A DNA stretch of 24,000 nt. Origin: Candidatus Coprovicinus avistercoris (GTDB taxonomy: Bacteria > Actinomycetota > Coriobacteriia > Coriobacteriales > Atopobiaceae). The notes beneath the pieces were generated by a model that worked only from the letters and a program-made list of their open reading frames with translations, was not told the DNA's origin and did no database searches. A program made the position numbers and the translations under genes. This document shows, piece by piece, positions 1-23,398 of this stretch (within the stretch, counting starts at the first letter, position 1; the number at the start of each line of letters is the position of its first letter). The stretch lies in the NCBI GenBank assembly GCA_018714895.1, contig DVMQ01000018.1, positions 2,491-26,490 on the forward strand, written 5' to 3'.

Positions 1-7
1 GGCGTTA

Positions 8-1072: not shown

Positions 1073-1296
1073 CAACTCAATGGAGAAACACCCGAAGCAT
1101 CCAAATCGTTCATAATGCTGAAAAGGAAAGATTAGCTTTTATGCCATAAAGGGTGCGTAAATGATGTGAGAACTGCGCAATTATCATGATGGCTTACGGT
1201 GGACTGTGCGCGCGGCGTTGCAATCGTTAGAGTAAGAGGTTGCACGGCACTGGGTCATATAGGGATACGGCCTATGGATGCGACTAGAGGATTACT

Positions 1297-4068: not shown

Positions 4069-4070
4069 GT

Positions 4071-5198: not shown

Positions 5199-5236
5199 GA
5201 GGTTCCGAGACTTTGTAGTTGCGAGAGGCGGGTGCC

Positions 5237-6112: not shown

Positions 6113-6164
6113 TGAAGTTGTTTGCCGTTTATTGAGTTTGCGTGCAACCTCTAAAAATTTCTAT

Positions 6165-6193
6165 TTGATTTCAGCGTATAGTTAACATATAGA
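6165..6193 (+). promoter_or_regulatory. Candidate sigma-70-type promoter for tal (TTGATT-N17-TATAGA)
   Basis: TTGATT at 6165-6170, a 17-nt spacer, then TATAGA at 6188-6193. This lies about 50 nt upstream of ATG 6244. Pattern match only. Confidence 0.35.
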
Positions 6194-6243
6194 TACCAGT
6201 AGGTACTTTTGTTTGCGTAAACAAAACGACAAAGGGGAGTGGC

Positions 6244-6927: not shown

Positions 6928-6978
6928 TAGTCGTCCTGTGAACTTGGGCACGAGTTGTCCTGTGTAAGAAGAAATGTG

Positions 6979-7016
6979 AACGCCTCTTCGTATTTTTGCG
7001 GAGAGGCGTTGTTTTA
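6979..7016 (+). terminator. Intrinsic terminator after tal
   Basis: Arm AACGCCTCTTC (6979-6989) pairs with GGAGAGGCGTT (7000-7010), including one G-U. The loop is 10 nt and GTTTTA follows. Confidence 0.6.
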
Positions 7017-7054
7017 GCGAAGGATGATCTTGCGCTGAGCAGAGCAACTATGCT

Positions 7055-7084
7055 TTGCTAGAATCCATATTGTATCCGTACTAT
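7055..7084 (+). promoter_or_regulatory. Candidate promoter for ftsEX (TTGCTA-N18-TACTAT)
   Basis: TTGCTA at 7055-7060 and TACTAT at 7079-7084. This coincides with the ORF-track TTG start, which argues that TTG is not the real start codon. Pattern match only. Confidence 0.3.
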
Positions 7085-7105
7085 AAACGCAACAAAGGAG
7101 CTCTT

Positions 7106-8101: not shown

Positions 8102-9011
8102 TCTGGGTTATTCACTGCGTGAAGCAGGCCATCACTTTCGGAGGAATCTCTCTACGGCCTTAGGTGCTGTAGTTACCATTTTCCTTTCACTCTTTATTAT
8201 CGGTTTGTTTGCTATTGGTTCGATCATGCTTAACAACATGGTTGGAAGTGTGGAGGATCAAGTAACTATTCAGGCATTTCTTTCCGATGATGCCGATCAG
8301 AGTGCGGTAGAGGCTCTTCAGGATAAGATTTCTGGATGGGACAACGTTCAGTCGGTTACCTATAAGAGCAAGGATGAGGCTCTTCAGGAGTATCGCGAGA
8401 CGATGTCAAACCGCAATGCTGAGGCTGCTGTTGCGGCACTTGATGGCGTCAATCCTGTGCCCGCATCTCTCGTTATTCAGCTCGACGACTCCCGTGAAGT
8501 GGCTGCTGTCGCCGATAAACTGATCGCTGATTCAGACTTCCAGGCAGTTGCTGACGATGAAGATGCGTCTGCTTCAGTCCTCTACGGACAAGGTACTGTT
8601 GAGCGTCTCTTTAGTGTGACAGCCTATATCCGTATTGTCGCAATCGTGCTGGTAGCCCTCTTGGTCTTTGTGGCATTTGTCTTTATCAACAACACCATTC
8701 GTTTGGCCATTACGGCTCGTCGCCGTGAGATTGCTATCGAACGTTTGGTAGGTGCATCAAATAGCTTCATTCGCGGGCCCTTCCTTACCGAAGGTGTTCT
8801 TGAAGCTTTGTTTGGCGCACTGCTCTCCATTGGTGCTTTGCAGCTGCTTTGCTCGTTCGTGCTGCCGAGATTTGAAGAGAGCCTCTCGTTCCTTACCCTT
8901 ACGGTTGATACAAGCTCGCTCTTGCACATCTATGCGGCGCTTATTTTGGCAGGCGTTGTCATTGGTGCCTTCGGTTCATTCATTGCAATGAGGCGCTACC
9001 TCAAGGTTTAA
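8091..9011 (+). CDS. ftsX: Cell-division permease-like protein FtsX
   Basis: 306 aa with FtsX topology: an N-terminal TM helix, an extracellular domain (VTIQAFLSDDADQSAVEALQDKISGWDNVQSVTYKSKDEALQEY), then three C-terminal TM helices containing REIAIERLVGASNSFIRGPFLTEG. ATG 8091 overlaps the ftsE stop at 8099-8101. Confidence 0.9.
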   Translation: MASNLGYSLREAGHHFRRNLSTALGAVVTIFLSLFIIGLFAIGSIMLNNMVGSVEDQVTIQAFLSDDADQSAVEALQDKISGWDNVQSVTYKSKDEALQEYRETMSNRNAEAAVAALDGVNPVPASLVIQLDDSREVAAVADKLIADSDFQAVADDEDASASVLYGQGTVERLFSVTAYIRIVAIVLVALLVFVAFVFINNTIRLAITARRREIAIERLVGASNSFIRGPFLTEGVLEALFGALLSIGALQLLCSFVLPRFEESLSFLTLTVDTSSLLHIYAALILAGVVIGAFGSFIAMRRYLKV

Positions 9012-9036
9012 TACCTTGTACAGGATTTGAGTTTCT

Positions 9037-9075
9037 GAGGCGGTGCAGCCATAAGGCGCGCCGCCTCTTATCTTT
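9037..9075 (+). terminator. Intrinsic terminator after ftsX
   Basis: GAGGCGGTGC (9037-9046) pairs with GCGCCGCCTC (9058-9067), including one G-U. The loop is 11 nt and TTATCTTT follows. Confidence 0.55.
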
Positions 9076-9087
9076 GGAGGACCTCGC

Positions 9088-11139
9088 ATGGGCAGAAAAA
9101 GACATTCTCGTTCACGCGCATATGGATCACAGCGTCGGTCACGCGCGCTTGTCCTTGAGGGAACTCTACATATCGTGCGCCCTGGCGTGGCGACCGTGGA
9201 GACACAAGAGGGGACATTCCATGTTGCACGTGGCGGCATCCGTGAGGGTATGGATGGGGACCTGGTGCGGGTAACGCTTTCTCGTCATGCAAGTTCCTCT
9301 CAGCCACAAGAGCCGCGTGCATACGTTCAGTCGGTAATGGCTCGTGCCTGTGAATCATTTTTGGGTACCTATGGTGTGGCATCTCCACTTGGTGTTGTTG
9401 TCCCGTTAGATGAACGCATCCGACGCGATTTCTTTGTATTGCCCGATGATAAGAGCGCAGATCGTTTGGGAATCAAAGAGGGAGATCTTGTAGTTGCGCG
9501 AATTTTGACGTATCCAACGCGGCGTGAAGCGGGCGTTGTAACACTTGATCGGCGTGTTGGCGCATCCGACGAAATAGATATTGATATTGAAAGTGTTATA
9601 GCGTCTTACAATTTACCCTGCGCTTTTCCTGAGCGTGTTTTGAAAGAGACGGACGCACTTACCCTTGATGTTGATGGTGTTCTTGCCGCCCAACCGTATC
9701 GTCGCGATTTGCGAAAGGGCTGCTGCTTTACCATAGATCCTGTGGATGCACGTGATTTTGACGATGCGTTGTCTGTGGATATAACTGATCAGGGCTATAC
9801 GCTTGGAGTGCATATCGCCGATGTTTCGCAGTATGTTCCACAGGATTCCTCATTGGATATTGAGGCACGGGCAAGAGGTTGTTCTGTCTATCTAGCCGAT
9901 CGTGTTTTACCTATGCTGCCAGAGCGTTTGAGCAATGATATTTGTTCATTGCGCCCAAATGAAGACCGGCTCTGCATGAGTGTGCTGATAGACCTCTCCT
10001 TAGACGGAGAAGTGCAGTCGTTTGAAATAACACCTTCAGCGATTCGCTCACAAGCACGCTTGGATTACGATTCAGTAGAGAAGCTGCTCGAAGGTAAGAG
10101 CACATCGTCAGATCTGTCTTGTGATGCGACTCATCGCGAAACAATTGCCCAAGCGCTTATGACGCTCGATAAAATTGCTGAGAAGCGCAGGATTATTCGC
10201 AAGCGTCGTGGTTCGATTGACTTTGAAACCGCGGAAGCAAAAGTTGTGCTCGATAAAAAAGGTGAGCCACAAGGAGTTCGTATTCGCGAACGTACAAATG
10301 CAACTTCACTTGTTGAAGAGGCCATGCTTGTCGCAAATGAGTGTGTGGCTCAACGTCTAGCACAGGCTGATATAGCGAGTGCGTATCGTGTTCATGAGCC
10401 TCCTATAGCAGAAAGACTCGAGAGCGCTCTTGTGATTCTGCATGAGCTTGAGCTTGTAAACTCCGAGGAATCGGAGCTTATCGCTGCTGGAGATCCGTAT
10501 GTCGTGCAGACGGTGCTCGAACGTGTGCGAGGTACCTCTTCCGAGCGTTTGGTTACATCGGTGCTTTTGCGAGCCCAGTCACGGGCTGTGTATGCTCCTC
10601 ATAACGAGGGTCACTATGCGCTTGGAGCTCGTGCATACTGCCACTTTACCTCGCCCATCAGGCGCTATCCGGATCTTGTTATCCATCGCAGTATAAAAAC
10701 GTTGCTAGGGATCGATAAAAACGCTGGTATAAAGGGTAAAAAGAAAGATCTTCCACAGTTGTGCCGATCCTGTTCCGAACTTGAGCGAAGAGCTGATAGT
10801 GCCGCGCGCGCTTCTCAGCGAGCAAAATTGGCGCGCTTTTATCTGGATCGTGTAGGGGAGGTATACGGAGGTGTCATTTCAGGTGTTGAGAAATTCGGGC
10901 TCTTTGTTGAGCTTGAAAAGACGCTTGCCGAAGGCCTTGTGCCCATACGCTTGATGCCCTCTGGCAGCATAAGGTTTGACGAGAAGCGCATGCTGTTGCG
11001 TAATGATCACGATGGACATACGTGGCGACTTGGCCAACGCGTCGCTGTCCGCATTGAGGATGCTGATCCCGCGCACGGCAAAATCACTCTCACGCTTGTC
11101 GGGGGAGCAACTGGTCGGGTGCCGGGTGGGTTACACTAG
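9088..11139 (+). CDS. rnr: Ribonuclease R (RNB-family 3'-5' exoribonuclease)
   Basis: 683 aa. N-terminal OB/CSD region, then an RNB catalytic domain (FTIDPVDARDFDDALSV, SVYLADRVLPMLPERLSNDICSLRP, HYALGARAYCHFTSPIRRYPDLVIHR), then a C-terminal S1 domain (YGGVISGVEKFGLFVELE...). GGAGG at 9076-9080 lies 7 nt before the ATG. Confidence 0.9.
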   Translation: MGRKRHSRSRAYGSQRRSRALVLEGTLHIVRPGVATVETQEGTFHVARGGIREGMDGDLVRVTLSRHASSSQPQEPRAYVQSVMARACESFLGTYGVASPLGVVVPLDERIRRDFFVLPDDKSADRLGIKEGDLVVARILTYPTRREAGVVTLDRRVGASDEIDIDIESVIASYNLPCAFPERVLKETDALTLDVDGVLAAQPYRRDLRKGCCFTIDPVDARDFDDALSVDITDQGYTLGVHIADVSQYVPQDSSLDIEARARGCSVYLADRVLPMLPERLSNDICSLRPNEDRLCMSVLIDLSLDGEVQSFEITPSAIRSQARLDYDSVEKLLEGKSTSSDLSCDATHRETIAQALMTLDKIAEKRRIIRKRRGSIDFETAEAKVVLDKKGEPQGVRIRERTNATSLVEEAMLVANECVAQRLAQADIASAYRVHEPPIAERLESALVILHELELVNSEESELIAAGDPYVVQTVLERVRGTSSERLVTSVLLRAQSRAVYAPHNEGHYALGARAYCHFTSPIRRYPDLVIHRSIKTLLGIDKNAGIKGKKKDLPQLCRSCSELERRADSAARASQRAKLARFYLDRVGEVYGGVISGVEKFGLFVELEKTLAEGLVPIRLMPSGSIRFDEKRMLLRNDHDGHTWRLGQRVAVRIEDADPAHGKITLTLVGGATGRVPGGLH

Positions 11140-11180
11140 GCAAACACATGCGCAGATAAACGAGCGCAGAAGGGACATAT

Positions 11181-12050
11181 ATGAGTACTGGTGTTGCAAA
11201 CCAAGCATATTCTGGGCTTGCCGATGATCTTACCCGTGCTGAAGGACTCCTTGTAGCAGGGCGAGATGAAGATGCGGAGAAACTGCTTTCCTCACTTGCT
11301 GAGGATGCTGAAGAGTATGTCGATAGAAATTGTCATACCACGGATAAGGTGCAGTGGTTTAGTTTCCCAACACTTTTTGAACGCCTTTGTTATCGACGTG
11401 TTGAGAATGACCCTCGCGAGCTGTATGACGTGGGGGAACCTCTGGATAGGCTTTATGCTGATTTAGGCTTAGCCTGTGTACGTCTTGGCGATTATGCCCG
11501 TGCTACCGAGGCGCTCAAACAGGCAGTGCGCTGGAACCCGATGGAGTGTGCTTACAGGCTTAACTTGGCAGATCTTTATCTCACGAATGGTGATGAGCGC
11601 GAGTTTCTCGCTCTGAGTTTTTCAGTATTTGAGCGCGCGAGCAATGCACAGCATCTTGTGCGCGCATACCTCAATTTTGCGCGCCATTATGAGCGGACAG
11701 GGCAAGCGGAGCTTCGTGCTGCATGTCTGCGCTGTGCACGTCGACTCGAGATGCCTTCCGAACAATTGGAAGCGGAGCTTGATGCCGTAAAAGGAACTGA
11801 CGCTGATCCCGATTCACTAGACGATGCGCGTGCTCAGCAAATTTTGGCAGAAGAAGGTTTACCTGAAGGGGCAAATGCTGAGGTTGCTGTCTGTTTGCTT
11901 ATGTGTGCTTCCGACGCAGCCGAAGTGGGCGATAAGAACCTTGCCACTGATTTGACGGTTCGAGCACGTGATCTTATTGGTGCGCCTGCGGCGTCCGCAC
12001 TTATCCAGCTCATTCATGAGACTGATGAGGAGGCAGATACGCATGCCTAA
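11181..12050 (+). CDS. Acidic TPR-like helical-repeat protein of unknown function
   Basis: 289-aa ORF with AAGGGA 5 nt upstream of ATG 11181. TPR-like segments include LGLACVRLGDYARATEALKQAVRWNPMECAYRLNLADLYLTNGD and LVRAYLNFARHYERTGQAELRAACLRCA. The protein is strongly enriched in D and E. Its stop overlaps the smpB start (ATGCCTAA). Confidence 0.7.
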   Translation: MSTGVANQAYSGLADDLTRAEGLLVAGRDEDAEKLLSSLAEDAEEYVDRNCHTTDKVQWFSFPTLFERLCYRRVENDPRELYDVGEPLDRLYADLGLACVRLGDYARATEALKQAVRWNPMECAYRLNLADLYLTNGDEREFLALSFSVFERASNAQHLVRAYLNFARHYERTGQAELRAACLRCARRLEMPSEQLEAELDAVKGTDADPDSLDDARAQQILAEEGLPEGANAEVAVCLLMCASDAAEVGDKNLATDLTVRARDLIGAPAASALIQLIHETDEEADTHA

Positions 12051-12513
12051 GCGCGAGCGTAAACTCATTGCCCGAAATCGTTCGGCACGCCATGAATACT
12101 TTGTTGATGAAACTTTCGAAGCAGGAATTGAGCTTCGAGGCACGGAAGTAAGAAGCTTGCGTGAGCGTGCATGCCAGATAACAGATGCCTTCTGTTTGAT
12201 TCGCGGAGGGCAGTGTTGGCTTCATGGTGTGCACTTGCACCCATACTCACATGGCAATATTTGGAACGTTGATCCGGATAGAAAGCGCCGTCTATTGTTG
12301 CACCGTCGCCAAATTGACTATCTTGACGGTAAGCTTAGAGCAAAAGGCATGGCGCTCATCCCGCTTGAGTTGTATTTCAACGAACATAACCGAGTCAAGC
12401 TACTTATTGGGCTCTGTAGGGGTAAGAAGCTCTATGACAAGCGAGCGGATATGGCTCGCAGAGATGTTGATCGCGAGATTCGTCGTGCTATCAAGGAGAA
12501 GAACCGCTACTAG
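12043..12513 (+). CDS. smpB: SsrA-binding protein SmpB
   Basis: MPKRERKLIARNRSARHEYFVDETFEAGIELRGTEVRSLR... and ...DPDRKRRLLLHRRQIDYL...GKKLYDKR are classic SmpB sequences. The start is ATG 12043, with GAGGAGG at 12027-12033. The ORF-track extension from 11968 lies inside the upstream gene. Confidence 0.93.
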   Translation: MPKRERKLIARNRSARHEYFVDETFEAGIELRGTEVRSLRERACQITDAFCLIRGGQCWLHGVHLHPYSHGNIWNVDPDRKRRLLLHRRQIDYLDGKLRAKGMALIPLELYFNEHNRVKLLIGLCRGKKLYDKRADMARRDVDREIRRAIKEKNRY

Positions 12514-12561
12514 GTGCTACAGATAGGCTGTACGTATTGGGTGGTTCAGAGGAGGCAGGTT

Positions 12562-13071
12562 ATGGATCCAAAGGCGCTCTTCAAGTTTTCATCCGGTTTG
12601 TATGTTGTAGCCGCTTCACACGGCGACGATGTTGGTGCTTGTCTCATCAACACTGGTATGCAACTTACAGCAGAACCCCTGCAAGTGCAGGTTGTTATCA
12701 ATAAAGAAAACCATACGGAATCTGTTGTTCGTGATGCCGGGAGCTTTTCTCTTGCTGTTGTGAGCGAGAAGGCAGACATGATGTATATCGGCCGTTTTGG
12801 ATTCCGCTCCTCAGTTGATTTCGACAAGTTTAGTGGCATTCCATGTGAGCACACATCGCTGGGCGATCCTTATACCACCGAGTGCACGTGCGCAATGCTG
12901 GGATGCAAGGTTGTCCAAACGCTTGATGTTGGTACGCACACGCTTTTTGTTGGAGAAGTGGTGGACGCGGAAGTACTTTCCGACGATGCGCCTATGACCT
13001 ACACCTACTACCATACGGTTCTTAAGGGAAAGACGCCCGCCAAGGCATCTTCTTATATTCCTCAGGGATAG
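12562..13071 (+). CDS. Flavin reductase-like (FMN-binding split-barrel) domain protein
   Basis: MDPKALFKFSSGLYVVAASHGDDVGACLINTGMQLTAEPLQVQVVINKENHT...THTLFVGEVVDAEVL matches the flavin reductase / flavoredoxin-type domain. ATG 12562 lies 6 nt after GGAGG (12551-12555). Confidence 0.8.
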   Translation: MDPKALFKFSSGLYVVAASHGDDVGACLINTGMQLTAEPLQVQVVINKENHTESVVRDAGSFSLAVVSEKADMMYIGRFGFRSSVDFDKFSGIPCEHTSLGDPYTTECTCAMLGCKVVQTLDVGTHTLFVGEVVDAEVLSDDAPMTYTYYHTVLKGKTPAKASSYIPQG

Positions 13072-14130: not shown

Positions 14131-14499
14131 GGGGGCGACTGGTTTCGACAGGGTAGTTCTGAGGTGGGCAGCAGGTCGTGGTCTCCTCGCCACGTTAAAC
14201 AGGGGTACCGTCAAATTGAATTGACGACAATAACTCTTATGAGCCTCAGCTGGCTCTTGCTGCTTAATTAAAATAGCAGCCGTCAATGCGGGAGTTGCTC
14301 CTGCTCTCGCGGCGACGTCACTCTAGGGAGCTGCGCACATGGACGTGGTTGGTATGCCGTGTGCTAAGGCCGAACCAACTGGAATGCAGCGTGCCAGTTA
14401 TCGAGCATAATGCATTCGAGATCTAATCGATAACTGAGCCTGGAGACACCTGCCAGGGGATTGCTTTGGACCGGAGTTCGATCCTCCGCGCCTCCACCA
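14131..14499 (+). ncRNA. ssrA: Transfer-messenger RNA (tmRNA, SsrA)
   Basis: The 5' end GGGGGCGACTGGTTTCGACAGGG and the 3' end GGAGTTCGATCCTCCGCGCCTCCACCA form a tRNA-Ala-like acceptor stem with a G3:U pair and an encoded CCA. An internal tag frame ends GCT CTT GCT GCT TAA (..ALAA stop) at 14253-14267. Confidence 0.93.
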
Positions 14500-14602: not shown

Positions 14603-14843
14603 TCCCTGCCGGAACTTTCACTGCTGACCGAATTTATCGCGTCATCAGGAATGGGGCGAAACCTCTGGGGTAGCTAAAGTCACTGGAGGTTTTGGATAAA
14701 AACGTCATAATGAAGATTACAATATAGTTTCGGGATTCCAATTCCGAAGTTTGTGTCGCAATGCGTGTAAACGTCAACTCGGGCAAGTAGTGGCTTGCCC
14801 TTAAGGTTTGATTGCCTATGTAGGCGGTCAGAAGGAGGAAACA

Positions 14844-16058
14844 ATGGGACGTTTTACTAACCCGCGTGACCTGTATTTTGGCGAGGGTGCTCGTCATGAG
14901 GTGAAGAACCTCAAGGGTTCCAAGGCCGTTATCGTTACCGGCGGCGGCTCCATGCGTCGTGGCGGCTTCCTGCAGGAACTCGAGGCAGACCTCAAAGAGG
15001 CTGGCTTCGAAGTCAAGCTTATCGAGGGCGTTGAGTCCGATCCGTCTGTAGAGACAGTCATGAAGGGCGCAGCCGTCATGTCTGAGTTCGAGCCTGACTG
15101 GATCGTTGCTATTGGTGGCGGCTCTCCTATCGACGCTGCTAAGGCCATGTGGATTAAGTACGAGTATCCCGACACCACGTTTGAGGATATGTGCAAGGTC
15201 TTTGGCCTGCCTGAGCTCCGCACCAAGGCTCACTTCTGCGCCATTTCCTCCACCTCTGGCACCGCTACTGAGGTAACTGCATTCTCGATCATCACCGATT
15301 ATGCTAAGGGCATCAAGTTCCCGATTGCCGACTTCCAAATTACTCCTGACGTGGCAATTGTTGACCCTGAGCTTACCTACACCATGCCTGCCAAGCTGTG
15401 CGCACACACCGGTATGGACGCTCTGACTCACGCCATTGAGTCCTACGTTTCCACTGCAGCCTCCATGTATACCGAGGCCAATTCACTCCACGCCATCCGT
15501 GAGATCGTCAAATGGCTGCCCGAGTCCTACAAGGGCGACAAAGAGGCACGTCAGCACATGCACGATGCTCAGTGCATCGCTGGTATTGCTTTCTCCTCTG
15601 GCCTGCTCGGCATCGTTCACTCCATGGCACACAAGACCGGCGCTGCCTTCACCGGCGACCACATTATCCATGGTTGCGCCAACGCTATGTACCTCGGCAA
15701 GGTCATCCAGTTCAACTCCAAGGTCCCCGAGGCCAAGACTAAGTATGCCTACATCGCCAAGGAAATCCTGCACCTCCCCGGCGAGACCGAGGACGAGCTC
15801 GTTGCTGCACTCGTACAGGAGATCCGCGACCTCAACGACAAGCTGGACATTCCGCAGGGCATCAAGAACTACGGCAAGGGCGGCGTAAAGGCCGACGAGT
15901 CCATCATCGACTACGCCGAGTTCGAGGAGAAGAAGAGCCGCATTGCTGTTGACGCTATTGGTGACGCCTGCACTGGCTCCAACCCGCGCCAGCCGACGCC
16001 GGAAGAGATGGAGAAGCTCCTCGAGTGCGTCTACAACGATGTGGATGTTGACTTCTAA
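14844..16058 (+). CDS. Iron-containing (group III) alcohol dehydrogenase, similar to the ADH domain of AdhE
   Basis: 404 aa. It has GGGSMRRGG, WIVAIGGGSPIDAAKAMW (the Fe-ADH GGGSxxD motif) and metal-binding His motifs (HTGMDALTHAIESY; HSMAHKTG; HGCANA). The start is ATG 14844, preceded by GAAGGAGGA (14831-14839). Codon usage is strongly C/G-ending. Confidence 0.9.
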   Translation: MGRFTNPRDLYFGEGARHEVKNLKGSKAVIVTGGGSMRRGGFLQELEADLKEAGFEVKLIEGVESDPSVETVMKGAAVMSEFEPDWIVAIGGGSPIDAAKAMWIKYEYPDTTFEDMCKVFGLPELRTKAHFCAISSTSGTATEVTAFSIITDYAKGIKFPIADFQITPDVAIVDPELTYTMPAKLCAHTGMDALTHAIESYVSTAASMYTEANSLHAIREIVKWLPESYKGDKEARQHMHDAQCIAGIAFSSGLLGIVHSMAHKTGAAFTGDHIIHGCANAMYLGKVIQFNSKVPEAKTKYAYIAKEILHLPGETEDELVAALVQEIRDLNDKLDIPQGIKNYGKGGVKADESIIDYAEFEEKKSRIAVDAIGDACTGSNPRQPTPEEMEKLLECVYNDVDVDF

Positions 16059-16167: not shown

Positions 16168-16201
16168 AAACAAAAAGGGGTGTTGGACAATCCAACACCC
16201 C
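16168..16201 (-). terminator. Intrinsic terminator after yjjW (minus strand)
   Basis: An 11-bp perfect stem, GGGGTGTTGGA (16177-16187) with TCCAACACCCC (16191-16201), has a 3-nt loop. On the minus strand TTTTTGTTT follows (plus-strand AAACAAAAA at 16168-16176). Confidence 0.75.
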
Positions 16202-16226
16202 TTGAGCTTTGTCTTAAGAGAATAAG

Positions 16227-17066
16227 CTAGCTTACAACGACTTTGCCAAAGCAAAGTTCGTGCGCAAGAGCCTCAATAGCATCCATACGCTCATCGGAAG
16301 GAGAGGGAGCGGTTGCCATGGGGCCCTTAACGCCAAATACGCGGAAACGCATGAGGCGAATACGGGTTGAGCTTACACGCTCGCCAAGGGTATCGGCTAT
16401 GCCGCGTACAGCATCCTCTGGATCGTTCCATCCTTCGGTAACGATAACGCGAACTTCCTCAAGCTTGTTGTGCTCGGAGAGATAGGCGAGGTTCTTTCGA
16501 ACCATTTTTCCATCTGTTCCCGTAAGCTTGCAGAACCAATCGTCATCCCACGATTTAACGTCAAGCATGACGCCGTCTGCCACTTTGAGCAGATCTGTAT
16601 AGTTGGCAAAATCAATTGTTCCGTTTGAATCGATAAGCGTTCCAATGCCAGCAGCTTTGCACTTTTGGAACAACTCATACATAAAATCGGGGTAGAGCAT
16701 GCATTCGCCACCCGAGCATGTAATGCCACGAATAAATGGAGCATATCCGCTTACCTGTTCAAACACATCCTCTGCCGTGAGATATTTGATACGTGGCGAA
16801 GAGTGATTGGGACATACATTGATGCAGGTGTCGCACTTAACGCACTTATCAGGATCCCATTCAACGGCGCCAGCAACAATGGAAAGCGCATTGGTGGGGC
16901 ACGCTTTTACGCATGTGCCACATCCCACGCAGAGGCGTTGCGTCTCAGGATTGTGACAATAAGCGCAATGAATATTGCAGCCCTGAACAAAAATGGATGT
17001 ACGAGCACCTGGGCCATCTACCAGGGAAAATGGAATGATATTGTTAACAGGAACATGCGCAGACAT
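16227..17066 (-). CDS. yjjW: Glycyl-radical enzyme activating enzyme, YjjW family (radical SAM with two extra ferredoxin-like 4Fe-4S motifs)
   Basis: The N-terminus IPFSLVDGPGARTSIFVQGCNIHCAYCHNPE carries the CX3CX2C radical-SAM motif at 16956-16979. CVGCGTCVKACP and CVKCDTCINVCP follow. The 279-aa length and its position directly downstream of a YjjI-type GRE fit the family. Confidence 0.88.
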   Translation of the reverse strand: MSAHVPVNNIIPFSLVDGPGARTSIFVQGCNIHCAYCHNPETQRLCVGCGTCVKACPTNALSIVAGAVEWDPDKCVKCDTCINVCPNHSSPRIKYLTAEDVFEQVSGYAPFIRGITCSGGECMLYPDFMYELFQKCKAAGIGTLIDSNGTIDFANYTDLLKVADGVMLDVKSWDDDWFCKLTGTDGKMVRKNLAYLSEHNKLEEVRVIVTEGWNDPEDAVRGIADTLGERVSSTRIRLMRFRVFGVKGPMATAPSPSDERMDAIEALAHELCFGKVVVS

Positions 17067-17088
17067 ATGCCCTCCCCTGCATTGAGGT

Positions 17089-17123
17089 AAAGAAAAGCCC
17101 CGCTACGCGCAAGGCGCAACGGG
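17089..17123 (-). terminator. Terminator-like hairpin (possible partial terminator or attenuator) between yjjI and yjjW
   Basis: The minus strand reads CCCGTTGCGC-CTTGC-GCGTAGCGGG (a 10-bp stem including two G-U pairs), then G and CTTTTCTTT. The hairpin starts 22 nt after the yjjI stop. The U-tract ends 23 nt before the yjjW ATG. Confidence 0.5.
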
Positions 17124-17144
17124 ACTTAAACGTAGCCATAAGAC

Positions 17145-18662
17145 TTACAAACGAACCTTACGGTCGGCAAGGTCGTTAGCGCGCCAGTTGCCCTCACCGT
17201 CGTGAGAGGTGTCGGCAAGAACTGCCTCGCCGCGAGCGTACTTCTCCATCTCGGAACGCTTCACCAAGAAGCCAGTGATGCGAACGAGGTCGGAATCGGA
17301 GGAGTAGAAGGAGAGGTATTTGTCATCGATGGCGAAAGCGCCCTTAATAACGTCGAGAATAGCCTCAGGGTTCTTCTCGGCGGTGGGCTCAACGGGGAAG
17401 ATGTCAGAAACGCCTGCGTTGAAGTACTTGTGCATGCTTGCGCACTGACGGATGTGATCATAGAAGACCTCAGGCTCGTCGCCAACCTTGATACGAACGC
17501 CCGGTGTGATGCCCACCTGATCGGCAAAGCCGGCCTGTGCATGCAGGGTGAAGCGGCCGCCGGCAACCTCTGAGTAAACAGCGTCAAACTCGTTGACCTG
17601 GTCGTAGATCTTCTGGCAGATCTGCTGGGCGAGCTCATTGCCCTCAGGATCGGTGCCATAGGCACGGTCATCATCGAAGTGCAGCAGCTCCTTGATGCAC
17701 TCGCTCATGCCGGCAACGCCGAACATAGCGGTAAAGCGGTCGCGGCTCAGCAGGCCTTCCTTCACCAGGAATGAAGAGTCGAAGAAGTGAGACTGCTCAA
17801 CCTCAAAACGAATGCGGTCATTCATGTAGTTGCAGAGCTCAGCGGTGGCAGAGGGGAGGATGTTGTTCATAAAGTCGTCTACGCTCGAGGACATGCGAGC
17901 AAGGCCAGGGAGCAGCAGACGATCGAGGCTGTAGGCACCGCCGCCAAGTGGCAAAACGTTGTAGCAGCTTACGACGGTGTAGTCGCCTGGATAGGTGTTT
18001 ACGTGCATGGGGTGGTTTGCGAAGGCGGGGTTAGCGCACTTCATGGCAGCCTCAATGCAGAGAATCATGAAGTCATCAGGTGTGATGTTGGGGTCATACT
18101 TCATGGTGAGGTTGGGGCATGCGTTCTGTGTGTCAATCATGGCCTGAAGCAGCAGGCGTCCGGCGCGGGTGTCCTCAGGGCCAATGTTGGCGTGGCAGTA
18201 GCCAGAAGCTACGGTGCGATCAATGTAGTTCAGGAAACGGTGGAGGCGAGGAAGCACCTCGTCGTCGTCCATGTCGGTAATAAACGGATCGATGATCTTA
18301 TCGAGCTGGCCACAGTAGACAGGACGGCTGGTGACGGAAGGCACGTTGTCATACAGCATAGCAAGGCCCCAAAGCAGGTCGTCAAGTGTCTCAGGCTTGT
18401 CGAGACGAAGGAACTCAGAGCCCTGCTCAGCAAACAGGCCATAGTTGGGGCAGATGTAGCGAGGACGATAAGGAGCCTTGCCCTCGGTCATGTCATCGAG
18501 GCCGCGAGCGGCGAAGAATTTATCGAACTCTTTGGTTGTCTTAATGGGATTGCAGTTGTTCTCAGCAGCTTGGGCAAGATGAAGCAGCTTCTGCTTATAG
18601 GTGAGATTGCTTGCCGTAATAATGTCTAAGTACTCTTTTTCAGTGCTTTTATCGACGCTCAT
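17145..18662 (-). CDS. yjjI: YjjI-family (DUF3029) short glycyl-radical enzyme; reaction unknown
   Basis: 505 aa, compared with about 516 aa for E. coli YjjI as I recall. The C-terminal glycyl-radical fingerprint is SDLVRITGFLVK (RITGF at 17268-17282, Gly codon at 17271-17273). An internal candidate thiyl loop reads YTVVSCYNVLPLGGG. A YjjW-type activase follows. AAGGAGGAG precedes ATG 18662. Confidence 0.88.
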   Translation of the reverse strand: MSVDKSTEKEYLDIITASNLTYKQKLLHLAQAAENNCNPIKTTKEFDKFFAARGLDDMTEGKAPYRPRYICPNYGLFAEQGSEFLRLDKPETLDDLLWGLAMLYDNVPSVTSRPVYCGQLDKIIDPFITDMDDDEVLPRLHRFLNYIDRTVASGYCHANIGPEDTRAGRLLLQAMIDTQNACPNLTMKYDPNITPDDFMILCIEAAMKCANPAFANHPMHVNTYPGDYTVVSCYNVLPLGGGAYSLDRLLLPGLARMSSSVDDFMNNILPSATAELCNYMNDRIRFEVEQSHFFDSSFLVKEGLLSRDRFTAMFGVAGMSECIKELLHFDDDRAYGTDPEGNELAQQICQKIYDQVNEFDAVYSEVAGGRFTLHAQAGFADQVGITPGVRIKVGDEPEVFYDHIRQCASMHKYFNAGVSDIFPVEPTAEKNPEAILDVIKGAFAIDDKYLSFYSSDSDLVRITGFLVKRSEMEKYARGEAVLADTSHDGEGNWRANDLADRKVRL

Positions 18663-18673
18663 AGCTCCTCCTT

Positions 18674-19399
18674 CTATTTGCCCTGCGACAGGCCCGTTTC
18701 GAACTCGTGCTGTATTTCGCTATCCAGGCGCGCACGTGCCTCCTGGTCGATAACGATTTTGTGCCCCTCACGATGGAGCATATGTCGCTGCTCTAACTCG
18801 TCCAAAGAACGCGACACGGTCTTAGTGCTTACATTAGCTTTCTCAGCCAGCTCGCTGCGAGATGCCTTAATAACTACATCACCTGTTTTGCTCTGCTGCC
18901 AACAATACTGGCACAGCACAAACATGAGACGCTTAACTCCGGTCCATCCCATAAGATCGCGCTCAGTTCCCGATTGCCGCAAAAGGCTTTTCACAACCGA
19001 ACGAGAACGAGCGAGAAGTGCCTCGGGATCGGACTTGAGCCAGGCGAGATAATCATCGCGTCGTGCAGAGATGAACTCACAGTCGGTTAATGCAATGAGC
19101 GAGCCGTGGAAAAGCGGGCTTTCTGAAAGGACTTCCATCTCCCCAAAGACAGCCGGAGCCTCAAACTCGTCAATTGCAAAAGTGGAGCCGGAAACTCCGT
19201 GTGTCGTCGTACGAACACGACCAGAACAAAGCAGATAAACACGAGTGCATCTGTCGAGCATGTGCACAAGAATTTCCCCACGTTTGAGACGAACAAGATG
19301 GGCGCGTGAAAGAACACCAGCAGGAATGCGGCTCACCCAAGGCAGCACAGCATCACGCACCTGCGGATCCAATGCTGAGATGTAGGTAAGTACGTCCAT
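18674..19399 (-). CDS. Crp/Fnr-family transcriptional regulator (cNMP-binding-like beta-barrel plus C-terminal HTH)
   Basis: Barrel region: LKRGEILVHMLDRCTRVYLLCSGRVRTTT...EAPAVFGEMEVL. C-terminal HTH: ASRSELAEKANVSTKTVSRSLDELEQRHML. I call ATG 19399 (GGAGG 5 nt upstream) rather than the ORF-track 19645, whose extension crosses an AT-rich, promoter-like region. The stop lies 11 nt before the yjjI ATG. Confidence 0.85.
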   Translation of the reverse strand: MDVLTYISALDPQVRDAVLPWVSRIPAGVLSRAHLVRLKRGEILVHMLDRCTRVYLLCSGRVRTTTHGVSGSTFAIDEFEAPAVFGEMEVLSESPLFHGSLIALTDCEFISARRDDYLAWLKSDPEALLARSRSVVKSLLRQSGTERDLMGWTGVKRLMFVLCQYCWQQSKTGDVVIKASRSELAEKANVSTKTVSRSLDELEQRHMLHREGHKIVIDQEARARLDSEIQHEFETGLSQGK

Positions 19400-19456
19400 G
19401 CTGTCCTCCAGCATATTGCTTGCACCACGCTTGTATGCGAAAGGTCTACGCCGTTT

Positions 19457-19492
19457 TGGGCAAATCTCATGCCATAACACGTGATTTGCCCA
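19457..19492. promoter_or_regulatory. 10-bp perfect inverted repeat TGGGCAAATC-N16-GATTTGCCCA upstream of the Crp/Fnr-yjjI-yjjW operon
   Basis: TGGGCAAATC at 19457-19466 and GATTTGCCCA at 19483-19492, with CACGTG near the centre. This lies 58-93 nt upstream of ATG 19399. It could be an operator or a 5'-UTR hairpin. Confidence 0.35.
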
Positions 19493-19521
19493 CATTTTAA
19501 GGAGATGAAAGTGGACTTTCG

Positions 19522-19535
19522 AGGACATATGTCCT
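19522..19535. promoter_or_regulatory. 14-bp perfect palindrome AGGACATATGTCCT in the regulator's promoter region
   Basis: AGGACATATGTCCT at 19522-19535 equals its own reverse complement. It sits next to a very AT-rich tract (19537-19560). Confidence 0.3.
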
Positions 19536-19622
19536 GAAAAAATAATAAAAATTAAACTTTGTGATGAAAGGCAATATTCTATCGGCGAATGGTATGTCAA
19601 CGAGCTTGATAAGGGGGAACTT

Positions 19623-19661
19623 AAAGAAAAAACCGGCTGCACCAACGAGGCACAGCCGGTG
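19623..19661 (-). terminator. Intrinsic terminator after psuG (minus strand)
   Basis: The minus strand reads ACCGGCTG-(13-nt loop)-CAGCCGGT followed by TTTTTTCTTT (plus-strand AAAGAAAAAA at 19623-19632). This separates psuG from the downstream regulator operon. Confidence 0.7.
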
Positions 19662-19689: not shown

Positions 19690-20619
19690 TTACTGCTCAA
19701 TGGCACGAAGTGCGACAGCAGTCTTTGCGCCAAGGGCAACATTGTTAAAAACGAGCTGGATGTTTGAATCGAGAGAATCGCCACCAGTCAGCTCAGAGAC
19801 CTTAGCGAGCAAGAATGGCGTGGTTTCCTTGCCGTGGATGCCCTGCTCTTCAGCTTCAGCAATAGCCTGATCAATAGCAGCATCGATGGTGGCTTTGTCC
19901 ATCGAATACTCTTCAGGAATAGGATTGCCAACGAGTACGCCGCCCTTGAGGCCCATCTCACGCTTGGTGTGGAAGATCTGAGCAAGCTCTTCGGGGGTGT
20001 CGACGCGATAGTCTACCGAGAAGCCCGAGTGACGGGTATAGAAGGCAGGGAGTTCTTCGGTCTGATAACCAAGAACAGGTACGCCGCGCGTCTCGAGGAA
20101 TTCAAGGGTGAGACCAAGATCGAGAATGGATTTTGCGCCAGCGCAAATGACCATTACAGGAGTATTGGCAAGCTCTTCGAGGTCAGCAGAGATGTCCATG
20201 GTGGTTTCGGCGCCACGATGAACGCCGCCAATGCCACCGGTAGCGAAGACCTCAATGCCTGCCATATGGGCAATAATCATCGTTGTGGTAACAGTGGTGG
20301 CTCCGTCCATGCCACGGGAGCACAAAACTGCCAGGTCGCGACGAGAGGCCTTGGTTACGTCATGGCCCTTCTTGCCGAGATAGTCGATCTCTTCTGGTGA
20401 GAGGCCTACGCGCAAACGTCCACCAATAACAGCAATGGTGGCAGGAATTGCGCCATTATCACGGATAATCTGCTCAACCTTAAGAGCGGTCTCCTTATTC
20501 TGCGGATAGGGCATGCCATGGGAAATGATGGTGGATTCAAGTGCGACGACTGGCTTACCCTCGTCAAGTGCCTGCTGAACCTCGGGAGAGATGTCGAGGA
20601 ACTTGTTGAGATTCTGCAT
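19690..20619 (-). CDS. psuG: Pseudouridine-5'-phosphate glycosidase
   Basis: 309 aa: MQNLNKFLDISPEVQQALDEGKPVVALESTIISHGMPYPQN...ATGGIGGVHRGAETTMDISADLEELA...VICAGAKSILD. This is the classic PsuG/YeiN (IndA-like) sequence. GGAAGGAG precedes the ATG. Confidence 0.93.
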   Translation of the reverse strand: MQNLNKFLDISPEVQQALDEGKPVVALESTIISHGMPYPQNKETALKVEQIIRDNGAIPATIAVIGGRLRVGLSPEEIDYLGKKGHDVTKASRRDLAVLCSRGMDGATTVTTTMIIAHMAGIEVFATGGIGGVHRGAETTMDISADLEELANTPVMVICAGAKSILDLGLTLEFLETRGVPVLGYQTEELPAFYTRHSGFSVDYRVDTPEELAQIFHTKREMGLKGGVLVGNPIPEEYSMDKATIDAAIDQAIAEAEEQGIHGKETTPFLLAKVSELTGGDSLDSNIQLVFNNVALGAKTAVALRAIEQ

Positions 20620-20705: not shown

Positions 20706-21800
20706 TTAGTCTTGATGCGCACGAGCAATGCGCTCGCGCACCTTATCTGCGGTTATCTCAGTATTGATTGTCGCAGCAGATTCCACAGCAAGAGAAGAGG
20801 TAGCAAGTCCGGCAAGACCCTGTGCTCTAAGCCCCTCTCCTTCGAGTGCAGACCATGCGATGGCTGCCATCATGGAATCTCCGGCACCGGTTGCATTGAC
20901 AACGTTGCTTTGCATGATAGGAAGCAGTATCTGCTGCTCATGATCGGCGCAGAGAAGGCCGCGGGTATCGAGGGAGATAAATACTTGCTGAAGCCCGGTA
21001 TCGAGCAATTTATTTGCAGCAAGTCTGAGAGACTCTTCGTCATGAATGGCAATACCAGAGAGCACTTCAGCTTCGAGTCTATTGGGCTTAAGCGTGTGAA
21101 AACGTCCTAGAGCGCCGCGTAGTTTAGGTGCTTTGGCGGTAGAAACCGGATCGCAGTATAGAGGTGTTGTTACGTGCTCAGCGAGCCAACGAAGTGTTTC
21201 TGCAGGAATATTAGTGTCTACAACACAAACGGAAGCGCGCTCAATGAGATCGAGCTTCCGCTCAAGCAGTTGAGGAACAAGTTTGTCGTAAATGCCCATA
21301 TCAGAGATGGCCAGTTCCATATCACCGGTTTCATCCATGATGAACAAATAGGTGCTCGTGGCCTCTCCGGGAATGGTAATGGAATCGGTGACGTCGATTC
21401 CAGCAGCCCGGCAGCTCTCTTGAAGCTCGCGTGCATGACCGTCATCTCCGAAGGCTGAGATGAAATGAACATCGCAGCCAAGTAGTGCCATGTTGTGAGC
21501 AATATTGCGTCCTGCACCGCCAGGGGAAAGACGCACTGTTCCGGGGTTGGAGTCATGCGCCACCAAAGGCCGCTGTGGTTTTCCAGCAATGTCCATATTG
21601 GCGCCACCGATAACAACCGCATATGGCTTTTCTGAGAGCACGTACTGGCGGCCAAGAATTGCGCCTTTACGCATGAGGTTGGAGATGTGAACAGCAACGG
21701 AAGAGCGAGAAATCTGAGCGCGGTCTGCAATCTCTTTTTGGGTAATGGAAGGATTTTCGCGAATCCATTCGAGGATCTGGCGCTCGCGCTCCGTGACCAT
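20706..21800 (-). CDS. psuK: PfkB-family carbohydrate kinase with an N-terminal winged-helix HTH domain (pseudouridine kinase-like, E. coli YeiI/PsuK type)
   Basis: N-terminal HTH: MVTERERQILEWIRENPSITQKEIADRAQISRSSVAVHISNLMRKGAILGRQY. A ribokinase-fold body follows (VVIGGANMDIAGK...GGAGRNIAHNMALLG...NATGAGDSMMAAI). It lies immediately upstream of psuG. GGAGG precedes the ATG. Confidence 0.82.
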   Translation of the reverse strand: MVTERERQILEWIRENPSITQKEIADRAQISRSSVAVHISNLMRKGAILGRQYVLSEKPYAVVIGGANMDIAGKPQRPLVAHDSNPGTVRLSPGGAGRNIAHNMALLGCDVHFISAFGDDGHARELQESCRAAGIDVTDSITIPGEATSTYLFIMDETGDMELAISDMGIYDKLVPQLLERKLDLIERASVCVVDTNIPAETLRWLAEHVTTPLYCDPVSTAKAPKLRGALGRFHTLKPNRLEAEVLSGIAIHDEESLRLAANKLLDTGLQQVFISLDTRGLLCADHEQQILLPIMQSNVVNATGAGDSMMAAIAWSALEGEGLRAQGLAGLATSSLAVESAATINTEITADKVRERIARAHQD

Positions 21801-21829
21801 TTTTACCTCCGTTGCGAAAAGTAGTCATT

Positions 21830-21868
21830 TGTTTGTAGCAAACATTTATTAAGAAAAGTAAATGTTTG
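21830..21868. promoter_or_regulatory. Cluster of three TGTTTG/CAAACA half-sites upstream of psuK (candidate operator)
   Basis: TGTTTG-TAG-CAAACA is a palindrome at 21830-21844. CAAACATTT (21839-21847) and AAATGTTTG (21860-21868) form a second 9-bp inverted repeat with a 12-nt spacer. The cluster lies 30-68 nt upstream of psuK ATG 21800. Confidence 0.35.
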
Positions 21869-22201
21869 TCTATGTCTTGCGCTGATTTTACGAAATTGAA
21901 TTAGGTCTGTAAAGCACAATTTCAAATTTCTTAAAACTGAAATAAATACCAGGAAATAAGCTATGCCAACAGGTGTTCAGAAAAAAGAGAAAATGCAATT
22001 CGGAGGTTTCAAATAAAGCATCCGTTCACGGAATAAGGGATGCCGCTCAGAGAACTGGACCACTTTCTCTTGTGGTAATGAACCGATTGGACGTTTAGAG
22101 TGCCCGAAATATTCCCTCCAGAGAGCTAAACAATTCTTTAGAATAGACAAGTGATAGTTCGAAGGATCGGATGGCCGCGAAATAAAGAAGAGGTGAGATG
22201 A

Positions 22202-23398
22202 ATGGAGAACCCCAAGCGAGTTTTTCTCATCGTCCTTGATAGTTTTGGTATTGGCGCGGAACCGGATGCTGCAGATTATGGTGACGAGGGAAGCAATACA
22301 CTTTGCGCTTGCGCCACAAGCGGCAAGCTTGTGATTCCTCATATGACAGAGCTTGGCTTGCTCAATATCGACGGTGCACTTGAGAGTCCCTATGACGTGA
22401 ATCTTACTCCTGTTAAGGATCCTAAAGGGGCATATGCACGTCTGCAAGAAGCTTCAAAGGGTAAAGATACAACCGTCGGACATTGGGAGATGGCGGGAGT
22501 AATTTCGCCGCGCAAGTTCCCAACGTATCCAGATGGTTTCCCAGCAGAGGTTATCGAAGCATTTGAGCGCGAGACGGGTCGTGGCGTGCTCTGCAATAAG
22601 CCTTATTCCGGTACTGATGTGATTCGCGACTATGGCGAAGAACATATGAAAACGGGCGACCTGATTGTATATACCTCAGCAGATAGCGTATTCCAGATTG
22701 CTGCTCATGAGGATATTGTCCCAGTTGAACAGCTTTATGAATACTGCAAGATTGCTCGTTCCATTCTTACGGGTGAACATGGTGTAGCACGCGTTATCGC
22801 CCGCCCATTTGTGGGTGAGCCTGGTAACTTCACGCGCACTTCTCGTCGACACGATTTCTCGTTGGAGCCTACGGGCACAACAATGCTTGATGTTCTTTTG
22901 GATGCGGGCTATGACGTTTTATCCGTAGGCAAGATTTACGACATCTTTGCTCATCGTGGCATTACTGATTTTGTATTCACATCAGGCAATGCCGAAGGCA
23001 TTGATCGCACCATTGAGTGGCTTGACCGCGATTTTAATGGTCTGTGCTTCACCAACCTCGTAGATTTTGACATGGTGTATGGCCATCGTAATGATCCTGA
23101 TGGATATGCAACGGCGCTTTCATACTTTGACTCAAAGCTTCCGGAGATTTGCGCTGGATTGCGAGAGAATGACCTGCTCATGATTACCGCCGACCATGGT
23201 TGTGATCCGGTAACGCCTTCAACAGATCATTCTCGTGAATATGTGCCGTGGCTCATATATGGCCAACATGTTCGTCCGGGAGTAAATTTGGGCACCCGCC
23301 CAACATTTGCTGATGTGGCCGAAACAATTTTGGACTATCTGGGTGAGCCAGCACTTGGGGTTGGTACGTCTCACGTACGTGAAATAGTGGAGGAGTAA
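22202..23398 (+). CDS. deoB: Phosphopentomutase
   Basis: 398 aa: KRVFLIVLDSFGIGAEPDAADYGDEGSNTL...GKDTTVGHWEMAG...ITADHGCDP. These are classic DeoB metal and phosphoserine motifs. AGAGGTGAGA precedes ATG 22202. Confidence 0.93.
   Translation: MENPKRVFLIVLDSFGIGAEPDAADYGDEGSNTLCACATSGKLVIPHMTELGLLNIDGALESPYDVNLTPVKDPKGAYARLQEASKGKDTTVGHWEMAGVISPRKFPTYPDGFPAEVIEAFERETGRGVLCNKPYSGTDVIRDYGEEHMKTGDLIVYTSADSVFQIAAHEDIVPVEQLYEYCKIARSILTGEHGVARVIARPFVGEPGNFTRTSRRHDFSLEPTGTTMLDVLLDAGYDVLSVGKIYDIFAHRGITDFVFTSGNAEGIDRTIEWLDRDFNGLCFTNLVDFDMVYGHRNDPDGYATALSYFDSKLPEICAGLRENDLLMITADHGCDPVTPSTDHSREYVPWLIYGQHVRPGVNLGTRPTFADVAETILDYLGEPALGVGTSHVREIVEE

Follow-up and report, generated by a model that had tools for sequence, protein, structure and literature searches.

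The 24,000-nucleotide stretch of Candidatus Coprovicinus avistercoris considered here (contig DVMQ01000018.1), referred to as the window, carries on its minus strand three consecutive genes encoding a regulator of the Crp/Fnr family, the glycyl radical enzyme (GRE) YjjI and its radical S-adenosylmethionine (SAM) activase YjjW (Table 1). An earlier note, made from the letters alone, had described these genes as an orphan enzyme system with its own regulator in one operon, and its coordinates for the three open reading frames are reproduced exactly. The locus agrees with the known YjjI/YjjW family in every feature open to testing and, judged on its sequence, is a further member of it; NCBI holds an identical YjjI protein from Olsenella sp. 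Marseille-QA0557 (Atopobiaceae, Actinomycetota) that already bears the name “YjjI family glycine radical enzyme”, and the object itself is thus not new. What comparison with related loci adds is a palindrome at yjjI promoters, the probable site of a dedicated activator, and a recurrent neighborhood of nucleoside-catabolism genes, from which a ribose phosphate is tentatively proposed as the substrate.

Table 1. Features of the yjjI locus and of its surroundings, in window positions
Feature	Position	Strand	Remarks
Crp/Fnr-family regulator, 241 aa	18674-19399	-	cNMP-binding and HTH_Crp_2 domains; without Fe-S Cys cluster
yjjI, YjjI-family glycyl radical enzyme, 505 aa	17145-18662	-	Cys233 codon 17966-17964; Gly464 codon 17273-17271
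yjjW, YjjW-family radical SAM activase, 279 aa	16227-17066	-	CX3CX2C encoded at 16979-16956, then two ferredoxin-like 4Fe-4S motifs
Palindrome AGGACATATGTCCT, candidate operator	19522-19535		Centre 29.5 nt upstream of the -10-like hexamer, about -41.5
-10-like hexamer TAAAAT	19494-19499	-	Promoter-like match TCGAAA-17-TAAAAT; predicted start near 19487
Second inverted repeat TGGGCAAATC...GATTTGCCCA, 15-nt arms, 6-nt gap	19457-19492		Overlaps predicted transcription start
11-nt spacer AAGGAGGAGCT	18663-18673	-	Regulator-yjjI junction; essentially the yjjI Shine-Dalgarno
Terminator-like hairpin, 14-bp stem then TTTTCTTT	17095-17127	-	In the 78-nt yjjI-yjjW spacer
Intrinsic-terminator-like hairpin, 13-bp stem and T-run	16175-16203	-	After yjjW; ends the unit
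Terminator-like hairpin after psuG	19632-19660	-	Separates psuK-psuG from the regulator-yjjI unit
psuG, pseudouridine-5'-phosphate glycosidase (Indigoidine_A family)	19690-20619	-	Context gene
psuK, PfkB kinase with N-terminal HTH, pseudouridine-kinase/YeiI type	20706-21800	-	Context gene
deoB, phosphopentomutase	22202-23398	+	Context gene, divergent from psuK; NF003766 529 bits, cut-off 256
Iron-containing alcohol dehydrogenase, AdhE C-terminal domain-like	14808-16058	+	Convergent with yjjW; possible context gene

YjjI scores 597 bits (curated cut-off 498.3) on the NCBIfam model TIGR04040, “YjjI family glycine radical enzyme”, and matches the Pfam family PF11230 end to end at 680 bits (profile positions 1-485 of 485). 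Both the family named in the earlier note and the shortness it had remarked on stand. The family is small and discrete: 1.84 billion representative sequences yield 600 matches at E<=1e-3 and about twenty full-length clusters at 50% identity, and at least 597 species genomes in the scanned collection encode a relative. In a family-wide alignment of the window protein, E. coli YjjI and 17 further representatives (19 sequences, 32-42% identity), the two elements that had been picked out by eye, the VRITGF fingerprint with Gly464 and the cysteine loop VVSCYNVLPLGGG with Cys233, prove to be centered on invariant residues; E60, R68, Y69, H157, N184, S232, N235, R248, E302, H374, Q376, R390 and R461 are invariant as well. 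Cys233 is the sole invariant cysteine, and its loop reads S-C-Y-N here and C-[YF]-N throughout the family. Cys209 was considered as a second catalytic cysteine and rejected: it is conserved in at least 90% of close relatives, but most deep branches have T, A, S, L or G in its position.

The partner protein scores 363.6 bits against TIGR04041, “YjjW family activase” (cut-off 250.2), and carries the motifs previously read from it, CNIHCAYC (CX3CX2C) followed by two ferredoxin-type cysteine motifs. On models of dehydratase-type activases it reaches 172 bits (T4HPD) and 160 bits (TIGR02494), on models of NrdG only 44-74 bits against cut-offs of 126-131; by its profile scores, YjjW thus appears far more closely allied to the two-auxiliary-cluster activases of GRE dehydratases than to NrdG. 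Its gene adjoins yjjI in 23 of the 28 lineages (Atopobiaceae, many Bacillota and one spirochaete) that remained when 80 retrieved yjjI genome loci, many of them from gut and oral Atopobiaceae and Bacillota, were dereplicated at 85% YjjI identity. The motifs and profiles of the pair indicate that YjjI with its YjjW activase is almost certainly an active GRE.

An AlphaFold model of YjjI, built on 63 homologues (pLDDT 90.9, pTM 0.91), places C233 at the tip of hairpin E228-231/E235-238 and G464 at the tip of hairpin E459-462/E465-468, as in all glycyl radical enzymes. Searched against the PDB with Foldseek, this predicted model has the ten-stranded GRE/RNR barrel, and its top 18 matches are without exception NrdD, the class III ribonucleotide reductase (RNR); the best is 8p2s_B (E = 4.9e-17, TMq 0.74), and the enzymes of S. 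thermophilus and T4 are also among the top ones. GREs of the pyruvate formate-lyase (PFL) type follow at about 1e-13, some four orders of magnitude weaker. A structure of YjjI itself was not found in the PDB copy searched by sequence, profile and Foldseek. YjjI as a PFL-like GRE was rejected, PF02901 and PF01228 being unmatched at E<=0.01 and its 505 residues comparing with 750-850.

The fold raises the question as to whether YjjI is instead a reductase of the RNR type, converting a ribonucleoside, ribonucleotide or ribose-1-phosphate into the 2-deoxy form with formate or a thiol protein, either for deoxynucleotide salvage or to feed DeoC directly. With class III RNR, the nearest solved fold, YjjI has in common a glycyl radical on a C-terminal R-x-x-G-[YF] loop, a thiyl cysteine on a finger loop and, for YjjI via genomic context only, ribose chemistry; the Pfam NRDD model (PF13597) is matched, if marginally (27.8 bits, cut-off 26.2), and yjjI adjoins deoC in E. 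coli and DeoC in loci L024, L035 and L046. The two proteins nevertheless share only 12-13% identity, YjjI is about 200 residues shorter, and it is found in catabolic contexts whereas NrdD is biosynthetic. Class III RNRs need a second active-site cysteine (C79 in T4, C175 in E. coli), of which the YjjI family has no invariant counterpart. YjjI also lacks the ATP-cone and the C-terminal cysteine-rich zinc site, with no cysteine at all in its C-terminal tail, and matches none of the NCBIfam NrdD models, while NrdD has PF03477 and PF01228; its activase, with two extra clusters, is not of the NrdG type, and E. coli already possesses NrdDG. YjjI was accordingly rejected as a class III RNR proper (second cysteine, zinc site, Gly_radical profile and NrdG-type activase are all absent), and an RNR-like reductase of the kind just described is quite improbable.

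At the regulator-yjjI junction the regulator ends with TAG at 18676-18674 and yjjI starts with ATG at 18662, leaving a gap that is, as had been claimed, little but the ribosome-binding site of yjjI. The short gap supports a coupling of these two genes, and the terminator 3' of yjjW is confirmed; the part of the one-operon reading that becomes uncertain is the place of yjjW, because a terminator-like hairpin as strong as the one after yjjW follows yjjI, here and in other Atopobiaceae. This hairpin is missing from the earlier note, as is the one after psuG. In eight Atopobiaceae loci (L001, L002, L025, L027, L035, L037, L038 and L048) the yjjI-yjjW spacer holds GC-rich hairpins of -26 to -98 kcal/mol whose structure is kept while their sequences are unrelated; in Bacillota, yjjI and yjjW overlap by 1-8 nt. 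The hairpin likely serves attenuation or 3'-end stabilization, which would yield more enzyme than activase.

The regulator matches PF00027 (cNMP_binding) at 54 bits and PF13545 (HTH_Crp_2) at 37 bits, and its relatives in the PDB are Crp/Fnr proteins without exception. A Crp-family gene of the same cluster adjoins yjjI in 15 of the 28 lineages, mostly directly upstream on the same strand, and in four lineages a GntR/FCD regulator takes its place. The 15 yjjI-linked regulators that were aligned have in common the recognition helix S.KTV.R and the β-roll motif AP..FGE.E. FNR-type sensors ligate a 4Fe-4S cluster through a group of cysteines, N-terminal in E. coli FNR and C-terminal in Bacillus Fnr; such a group is absent from both ends of all 15 proteins, which have a single semi-conserved cysteine, and the yjjI-linked regulators are thus not oxygen sensors of the FNR type. 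The E. coli protein closest in role is YeiL, a Crp/Fnr-family activator encoded between rihB-nupX and psuT-psuG-psuK (L091, 2252895-2259296): both regulators have an AP..GE.E β-roll motif and stand among pyrimidine-nucleoside and pseudouridine genes. By comparison with the yjjI regulator, however, YeiL has no linked GRE, and the similarity is confined to a local match of 40 residues, with 18 bits on the YeiL NCBIfam model (cut-off 180); on sequence grounds YeiL is a functional analogue and not an orthologue.

The upstream regions of yjjI loci share the palindrome aAGGACAnnTGTCCTt, or AGGAC-N4-GTCCT, which has the 5-N4-5 geometry of FNR sites but different half-sites, and of which the copy in Table 1 is the only perfect one in the window. 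It recurs at yjjI-operon promoters in two phyla, in Atopobiaceae (Actinomycetota) and in Bacillota loci: 1.33 Mb of loci contain 18 perfect sites where about 1.3 would be expected by chance, and all but one of the 18 lie at yjjI-operon promoters. In the Lacrimispora and Hungatella loci the regulator gene is 5.7 kb downstream, yet the operator remains with yjjI, 86 nt before it. Between the palindrome center and the first base of the -10-like hexamer, 18 of 21 loci show a distance of 29.5 or 30.5 nt, with a good -10 hexamer and a poor -35 hexamer. In the textbook architecture of CRP and FNR promoters a site centered at -41.5 or -42.5 is the position of a class II activator, and it is to this geometry that the spacing corresponds. 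The regulator is thus very probably a dedicated activator working through the predicted palindromic operator, and the earlier claim that the enzyme has its own regulator is borne out more strongly than it was first made.

It could be argued that the Crp-family protein is a repressor, or a general anaerobic sensor resembling FNR, rather than a ligand-specific activator of yjjI. A repressor, too, could work from the palindrome, which extends over the -35 region, and the second inverted repeat lies over the predicted transcription start; moreover, E. coli controls yjjI through the global regulator FNR, which activates it directly (PMC3688515). A scan of the E. coli yjjI-deoC region with the FNR consensus gave matches at chance level. 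A repressor or a general anaerobic sensor is an improbable explanation in view of the class II pattern at 18 of 21 loci, the lack of any N- or C-terminal cysteine cluster in the regulators, and the near-restriction of the operator, in the loci examined, to yjjI operons. Activation, as opposed to repression, would thus be the mode of control, and the ligand would probably be a small molecule. No other copy of the second inverted repeat (GGGCAAATC arms) is present in the window, and none was observed in those related loci that were inspected; with its arms TGGGCAAATCTCATG and CACGTGATTTGCCCA at 19457-19492 it could act as a second operator or form a hairpin in the leader.

Allowing up to two mismatches, no further credible operator is found in the window, so that, as far as the sequence shows, the regulon here does not extend to psuKG, deoB or the alcohol dehydrogenase gene. 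In four Bacillota loci (L040, L041, L043 and L045) two degenerate operators, AAAGGACAAGTGTACC and GTGGACAGTTGACCTT, are located between the divergent deoB and regulator-yjjI genes, which suggests co-regulation of deoB there. Locus L054 contains a second perfect site, AGGACATTTGTCCT at 11587-11600, which precedes a PF00756 esterase gene by 93 nt.

The genes around yjjI are those of nucleoside uptake and catabolism. Counting PnrA-like BMP ABC transporters, uridine phosphorylase, cytidine deaminase, DeoB, DeoC, PsuK/PsuG, NupG and adenosine deaminase, at least one such gene lies within 8 kb of yjjI in 24 of the 28 lineages, often co-directional and tightly spaced. Within 6 kb, a PnrA-like BMP binding protein (PF02608, 272 bits) is encoded in 15 lineages, the two-domain ATPase of the BMP transporter in 16 and its permeases in 14, uridine phosphorylase (TIGR01718, above cut-off) in eight, DeoB in seven, cytidine deaminase and PsuK in five each, PsuG in four and DeoC in three; NupG-type symporters and adenosine deaminase also occur near yjjI in some lineages. 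The arrangement can be very compact. In locus L061 an operator precedes the series yjjI, yjjW, BMP, ATPase, permease, permease, Crp, Udp, Udp and Cdd, with successive intervals of -4, 24, 70, -8, -8, 86, 17, -11 and 35. Deep branches show other members of the same metabolism: L088 encodes a nucleoside hydrolase, an ADP-ribosylglycohydrolase, a PfkB kinase, a PNP/UDP phosphorylase, YjjI, YjjW, an MFS protein and Bmp, and L090 encodes adenosine deaminase, PfkB, YjjW and YjjI. In E. coli K-12, 257 bp separate yjjW-yjjI from the divergent deoCABD, and in the window deoB and psuK-psuG adjoin the yjjI unit. The word orphan still fits the system in that it has no assigned reaction, but not in the sense of lacking context, and it is more tractable than the earlier note had argued. 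These neighborhoods make a role for YjjI in nucleoside or pentose catabolism probable.

Two further neighbors deserve mention. In L056, L057, L059 and L069 a PF00756 esterase gene closely adjoins either yjjI/yjjW or the nucleoside transporter, and its product may be a downstream enzyme of the pathway. The L088 cluster (1187-5341) has, besides the ADP-ribosylglycohydrolase gene, a gene for a 511-residue sulfatase-family protein directly 5' of yjjI; the two hint that the substrate of that lineage could be a modified ribosyl or a sulfated compound.

The nucleoside and pentose context would suit a carbon-carbon lyase equally well, that is, a PFL- or phosphoketolase-like radical enzyme splitting a C5 pentose phosphate into C2 or C1 and C3 or C4 fragments. 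Some YjjI homologues do show a weak PFL-like match to PF02901, and the esterase, whose family includes S-formylglutathione hydrolase and which is tightly linked in about four lineages, once with an operator of its own, could fit a formyl-ester product. Such a lyase is nonetheless very improbable: the loop S-C-Y-N has no adjacent pair of cysteines as in PFL, no CoA-handling partner recurs nearby, and NrdD is closer in fold than PFL.

A known counterpart of the system is E. coli K-12 YjjI/YjjW (b4380/b4379; TIGR04040/TIGR04041, PF11230), which is 38% identical over the full length with the same glycine and cysteine motifs. Both loci have an adjacent activase of the YjjW type, and both lie among nucleoside-catabolism genes, deoCABD in E. 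coli and deoB with psuKG in the window; E. coli yjjI is likewise expressed anaerobically under a Crp/Fnr-family protein, and Yersinia yjjI is induced anaerobically (PMC3792023). The E. coli locus relies, however, on global FNR without a dedicated regulator gene, and its yjjI and yjjW overlap whereas the window pair is separated by the hairpin. In RefSeq the protein of E. coli still goes under “DUF3029 domain-containing protein YjjI”, and the class of its NCBIfam model is hypothetical equivalog. Full-text searches on YjjI, YjjW, DUF3029 and glycyl radical with nucleoside, in a coverage that leaves out most subscription journals, returned no functional assignment, and a review of the GRE superfamily of June 2026 leaves YjjI unmentioned. 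The earlier statement that no reaction has been assigned to YjjI thus holds within the searchable literature and the annotation of 2026, and in that same literature neither the operator, nor the class II architecture, nor the cross-phylum link to nucleosides was found.

Several observations weigh against a ribose-derived substrate and an RNR-like reaction. Nucleoside genes are lacking near yjjI in the well-flanked lineages L033, L068 and L073 and in the deep-branch loci L084 and L086/87, as well as in L042, where the flanking sequence is too short to judge. DeoC is close in only three of the 28 lineages, plus E. coli, and the neighboring enzymes converge on uracil as well as on ribose-5-phosphate. 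Alignment of the YjjI profile with the single E. coli NrdD sequence by hhalign gave a probability of 2% and was left unused for residue mapping; a homologue search with E. coli NrdD gave, among the matches listed, only sequences of 86-94% identity, too uniform for a useful profile. Substrate and reaction are inferred from neighborhood, fold and residue conservation. Lastly, a biclustering and co-expression study ties E. coli yjjI to nitrate and nitrogen genes and guesses at a role in nitrogen metabolism (PMC3228777).

Some of these observations would be explained if the substrate were not related to ribose at all but either derived from a pyrimidine or belonged to anaerobic nitrogen or respiratory metabolism, the nucleoside neighbors sharing with yjjI only their anaerobic or starvation regulation. 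Udp, Cdd and PsuG do converge on uracil, E. coli yjjI depends on FNR and falls into one cluster with nar genes, and some lineages are devoid of any nucleoside neighbor. On chemical reasoning, however, uracil lacks any sp3 C-H from which a thiyl radical could take the hydrogen; ring-opening genes of the dihydropyrimidinase or ureidopropionase type do not recur near yjjI; adenosine deaminase, from the purine side, and the base-independent DeoB, PfkB kinase and nucleoside hydrolase co-occur with it; and the nucleoside importer itself is part of operator-controlled operons. A substrate outside ribose metabolism is therefore held to be unlikely.

The preferred proposal remains a radical elimination of a hydroxyl group from ribose-5-phosphate by an activator-controlled YjjI/YjjW pair. 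The dedicated Crp-family activator would bind the palindrome near -41.5 and turn on its own gene and yjjI, with yjjW expressed through read-through of the attenuating hairpin; because it has no cysteines for an iron-sulfur cluster, it would probably respond not to oxygen but to a small-molecule ligand. YjjW, a radical SAM activase with two auxiliary clusters, would take a hydrogen from Gly464, and the glycyl radical would in turn make a thiyl radical of Cys233, the residue at the end of the finger loop opposite. YjjI, as a trimmed barrel closest to class III RNR, would then act on a ribose-derived intermediate in the anaerobic breakdown of nucleosides, most likely ribose-5-phosphate, on which the predicted routes converge (uridine phosphorylase and DeoB; nucleoside hydrolase and kinase; PsuK and PsuG). 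The chemistry would be the first half of the RNR reaction, in which hydrogen abstraction beside a hydroxyl is followed by loss of the neighboring hydroxyl, the net result being a dehydration that gives a deoxy-keto or lactone pentose phosphate; dehydration is preferred to a two-electron reduction because the family retains only one invariant cysteine. The product would pass to DeoC and the alcohol dehydrogenase after keto-reduction, or to the esterase. Family identity, catalytic motifs, fold, operator-promoter architecture and gene neighborhoods are the observed parts of this scheme; the substrate, the reaction, the ligand of the regulator and activation in place of repression are inferred. 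As a whole the scheme is put forward tentatively, as one that could well be correct.

The known GRE eliminases lend this proposal a chemical precedent. Glycerol and propanediol dehydratases, HypD and E. coli YbiW/PflD have, like YjjI, a single catalytic cysteine, and their activases carry a ferredoxin-like insert as YjjW does; YbiW/PflD has been seen bound to 1,5-anhydroglucitol- or 1,5-anhydromannitol-6-phosphate (PDB 8id7, 8id0), and GREs thus accept cyclic sugar phosphates. By comparison with YjjI, these enzymes are 750-850 residues long, belong to PF02901 and PF01228, neither of which YjjI matches at E<=0.01, and have a C-x-E loop in place of C-[YF]-N. The NrdD-like fold, these sugar phosphate precedents and three invariant arginines able in principle to bind a phosphate argue for a ribose phosphate as the likeliest substrate, a plausible assignment that still falls short of probable. 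The single invariant cysteine, the C-[YF]-N loop and the dehydratase-type activase favor elimination over reduction, but elimination by YjjI is itself a doubtful proposition. More speculative still is the full picture of YjjI as a catabolic offshoot of the RNR fold, a single-cysteine GRE that dehydroxylates ribose-5-phosphate or a close ribosyl relative and whose activator senses the intermediate and acts through AGGAC-N4-GTCCT.

Positions 1-13071, the upstream half of the window, hold housekeeping genes: secA, prfB, ftsE and ftsX, genes for a YitT-family membrane protein, a transaldolase-like protein, RNase R, a TPR protein and a flavin reductase, and smpB (11968-12513); the yjjI unit thus lies in the core chromosome, with no obvious island. 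A full-length tmRNA gene (14131-14499, plus strand; RF00023, 145 bits) is situated about 1.6 kb downstream of smpB, between a hexapeptide-repeat gene and the alcohol dehydrogenase gene; it was the only hit of an Rfam scan of the window and five Bacillota loci, and no riboswitch was found. The PfkB kinase (20706-21800, minus strand) has an N-terminal winged-helix domain and matches best the NCBIfam model PRK09954, “sugar kinase”; the comparison for this architecture is with YeiI of E. coli (“putative sugar kinase YeiI”). The 400-nt AT-rich region between psuK and deoB (21801-22201) contains the palindrome TGTTTGTAGCAAACA at 21829-21843 and a repeat of AAATGTTTG, which possibly constitute the kinase protein's own operator.

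The operator, its class II architecture and the cross-phylum link to nucleosides make an old open question experimentally approachable. The comparative evidence narrows the search for the substrate of YjjI to ribose-5-phosphate, ribose-1-phosphate, ribulose-5-phosphate and pyrimidine nucleosides, and the regulator-operator pair is usable as a ligand sensor. Were YjjI to carry out an RNR-like elimination on a free sugar phosphate, this would represent a new reaction class in the GRE superfamily and would bear on how the chemistry of ribonucleotide reduction relates to simpler sugar chemistry; and if the enzyme is indeed a dehydroxylating offshoot of the RNR fold, ribonucleosides would have a hitherto unknown anaerobic route to deoxy-sugar and C2 plus C3 metabolism.

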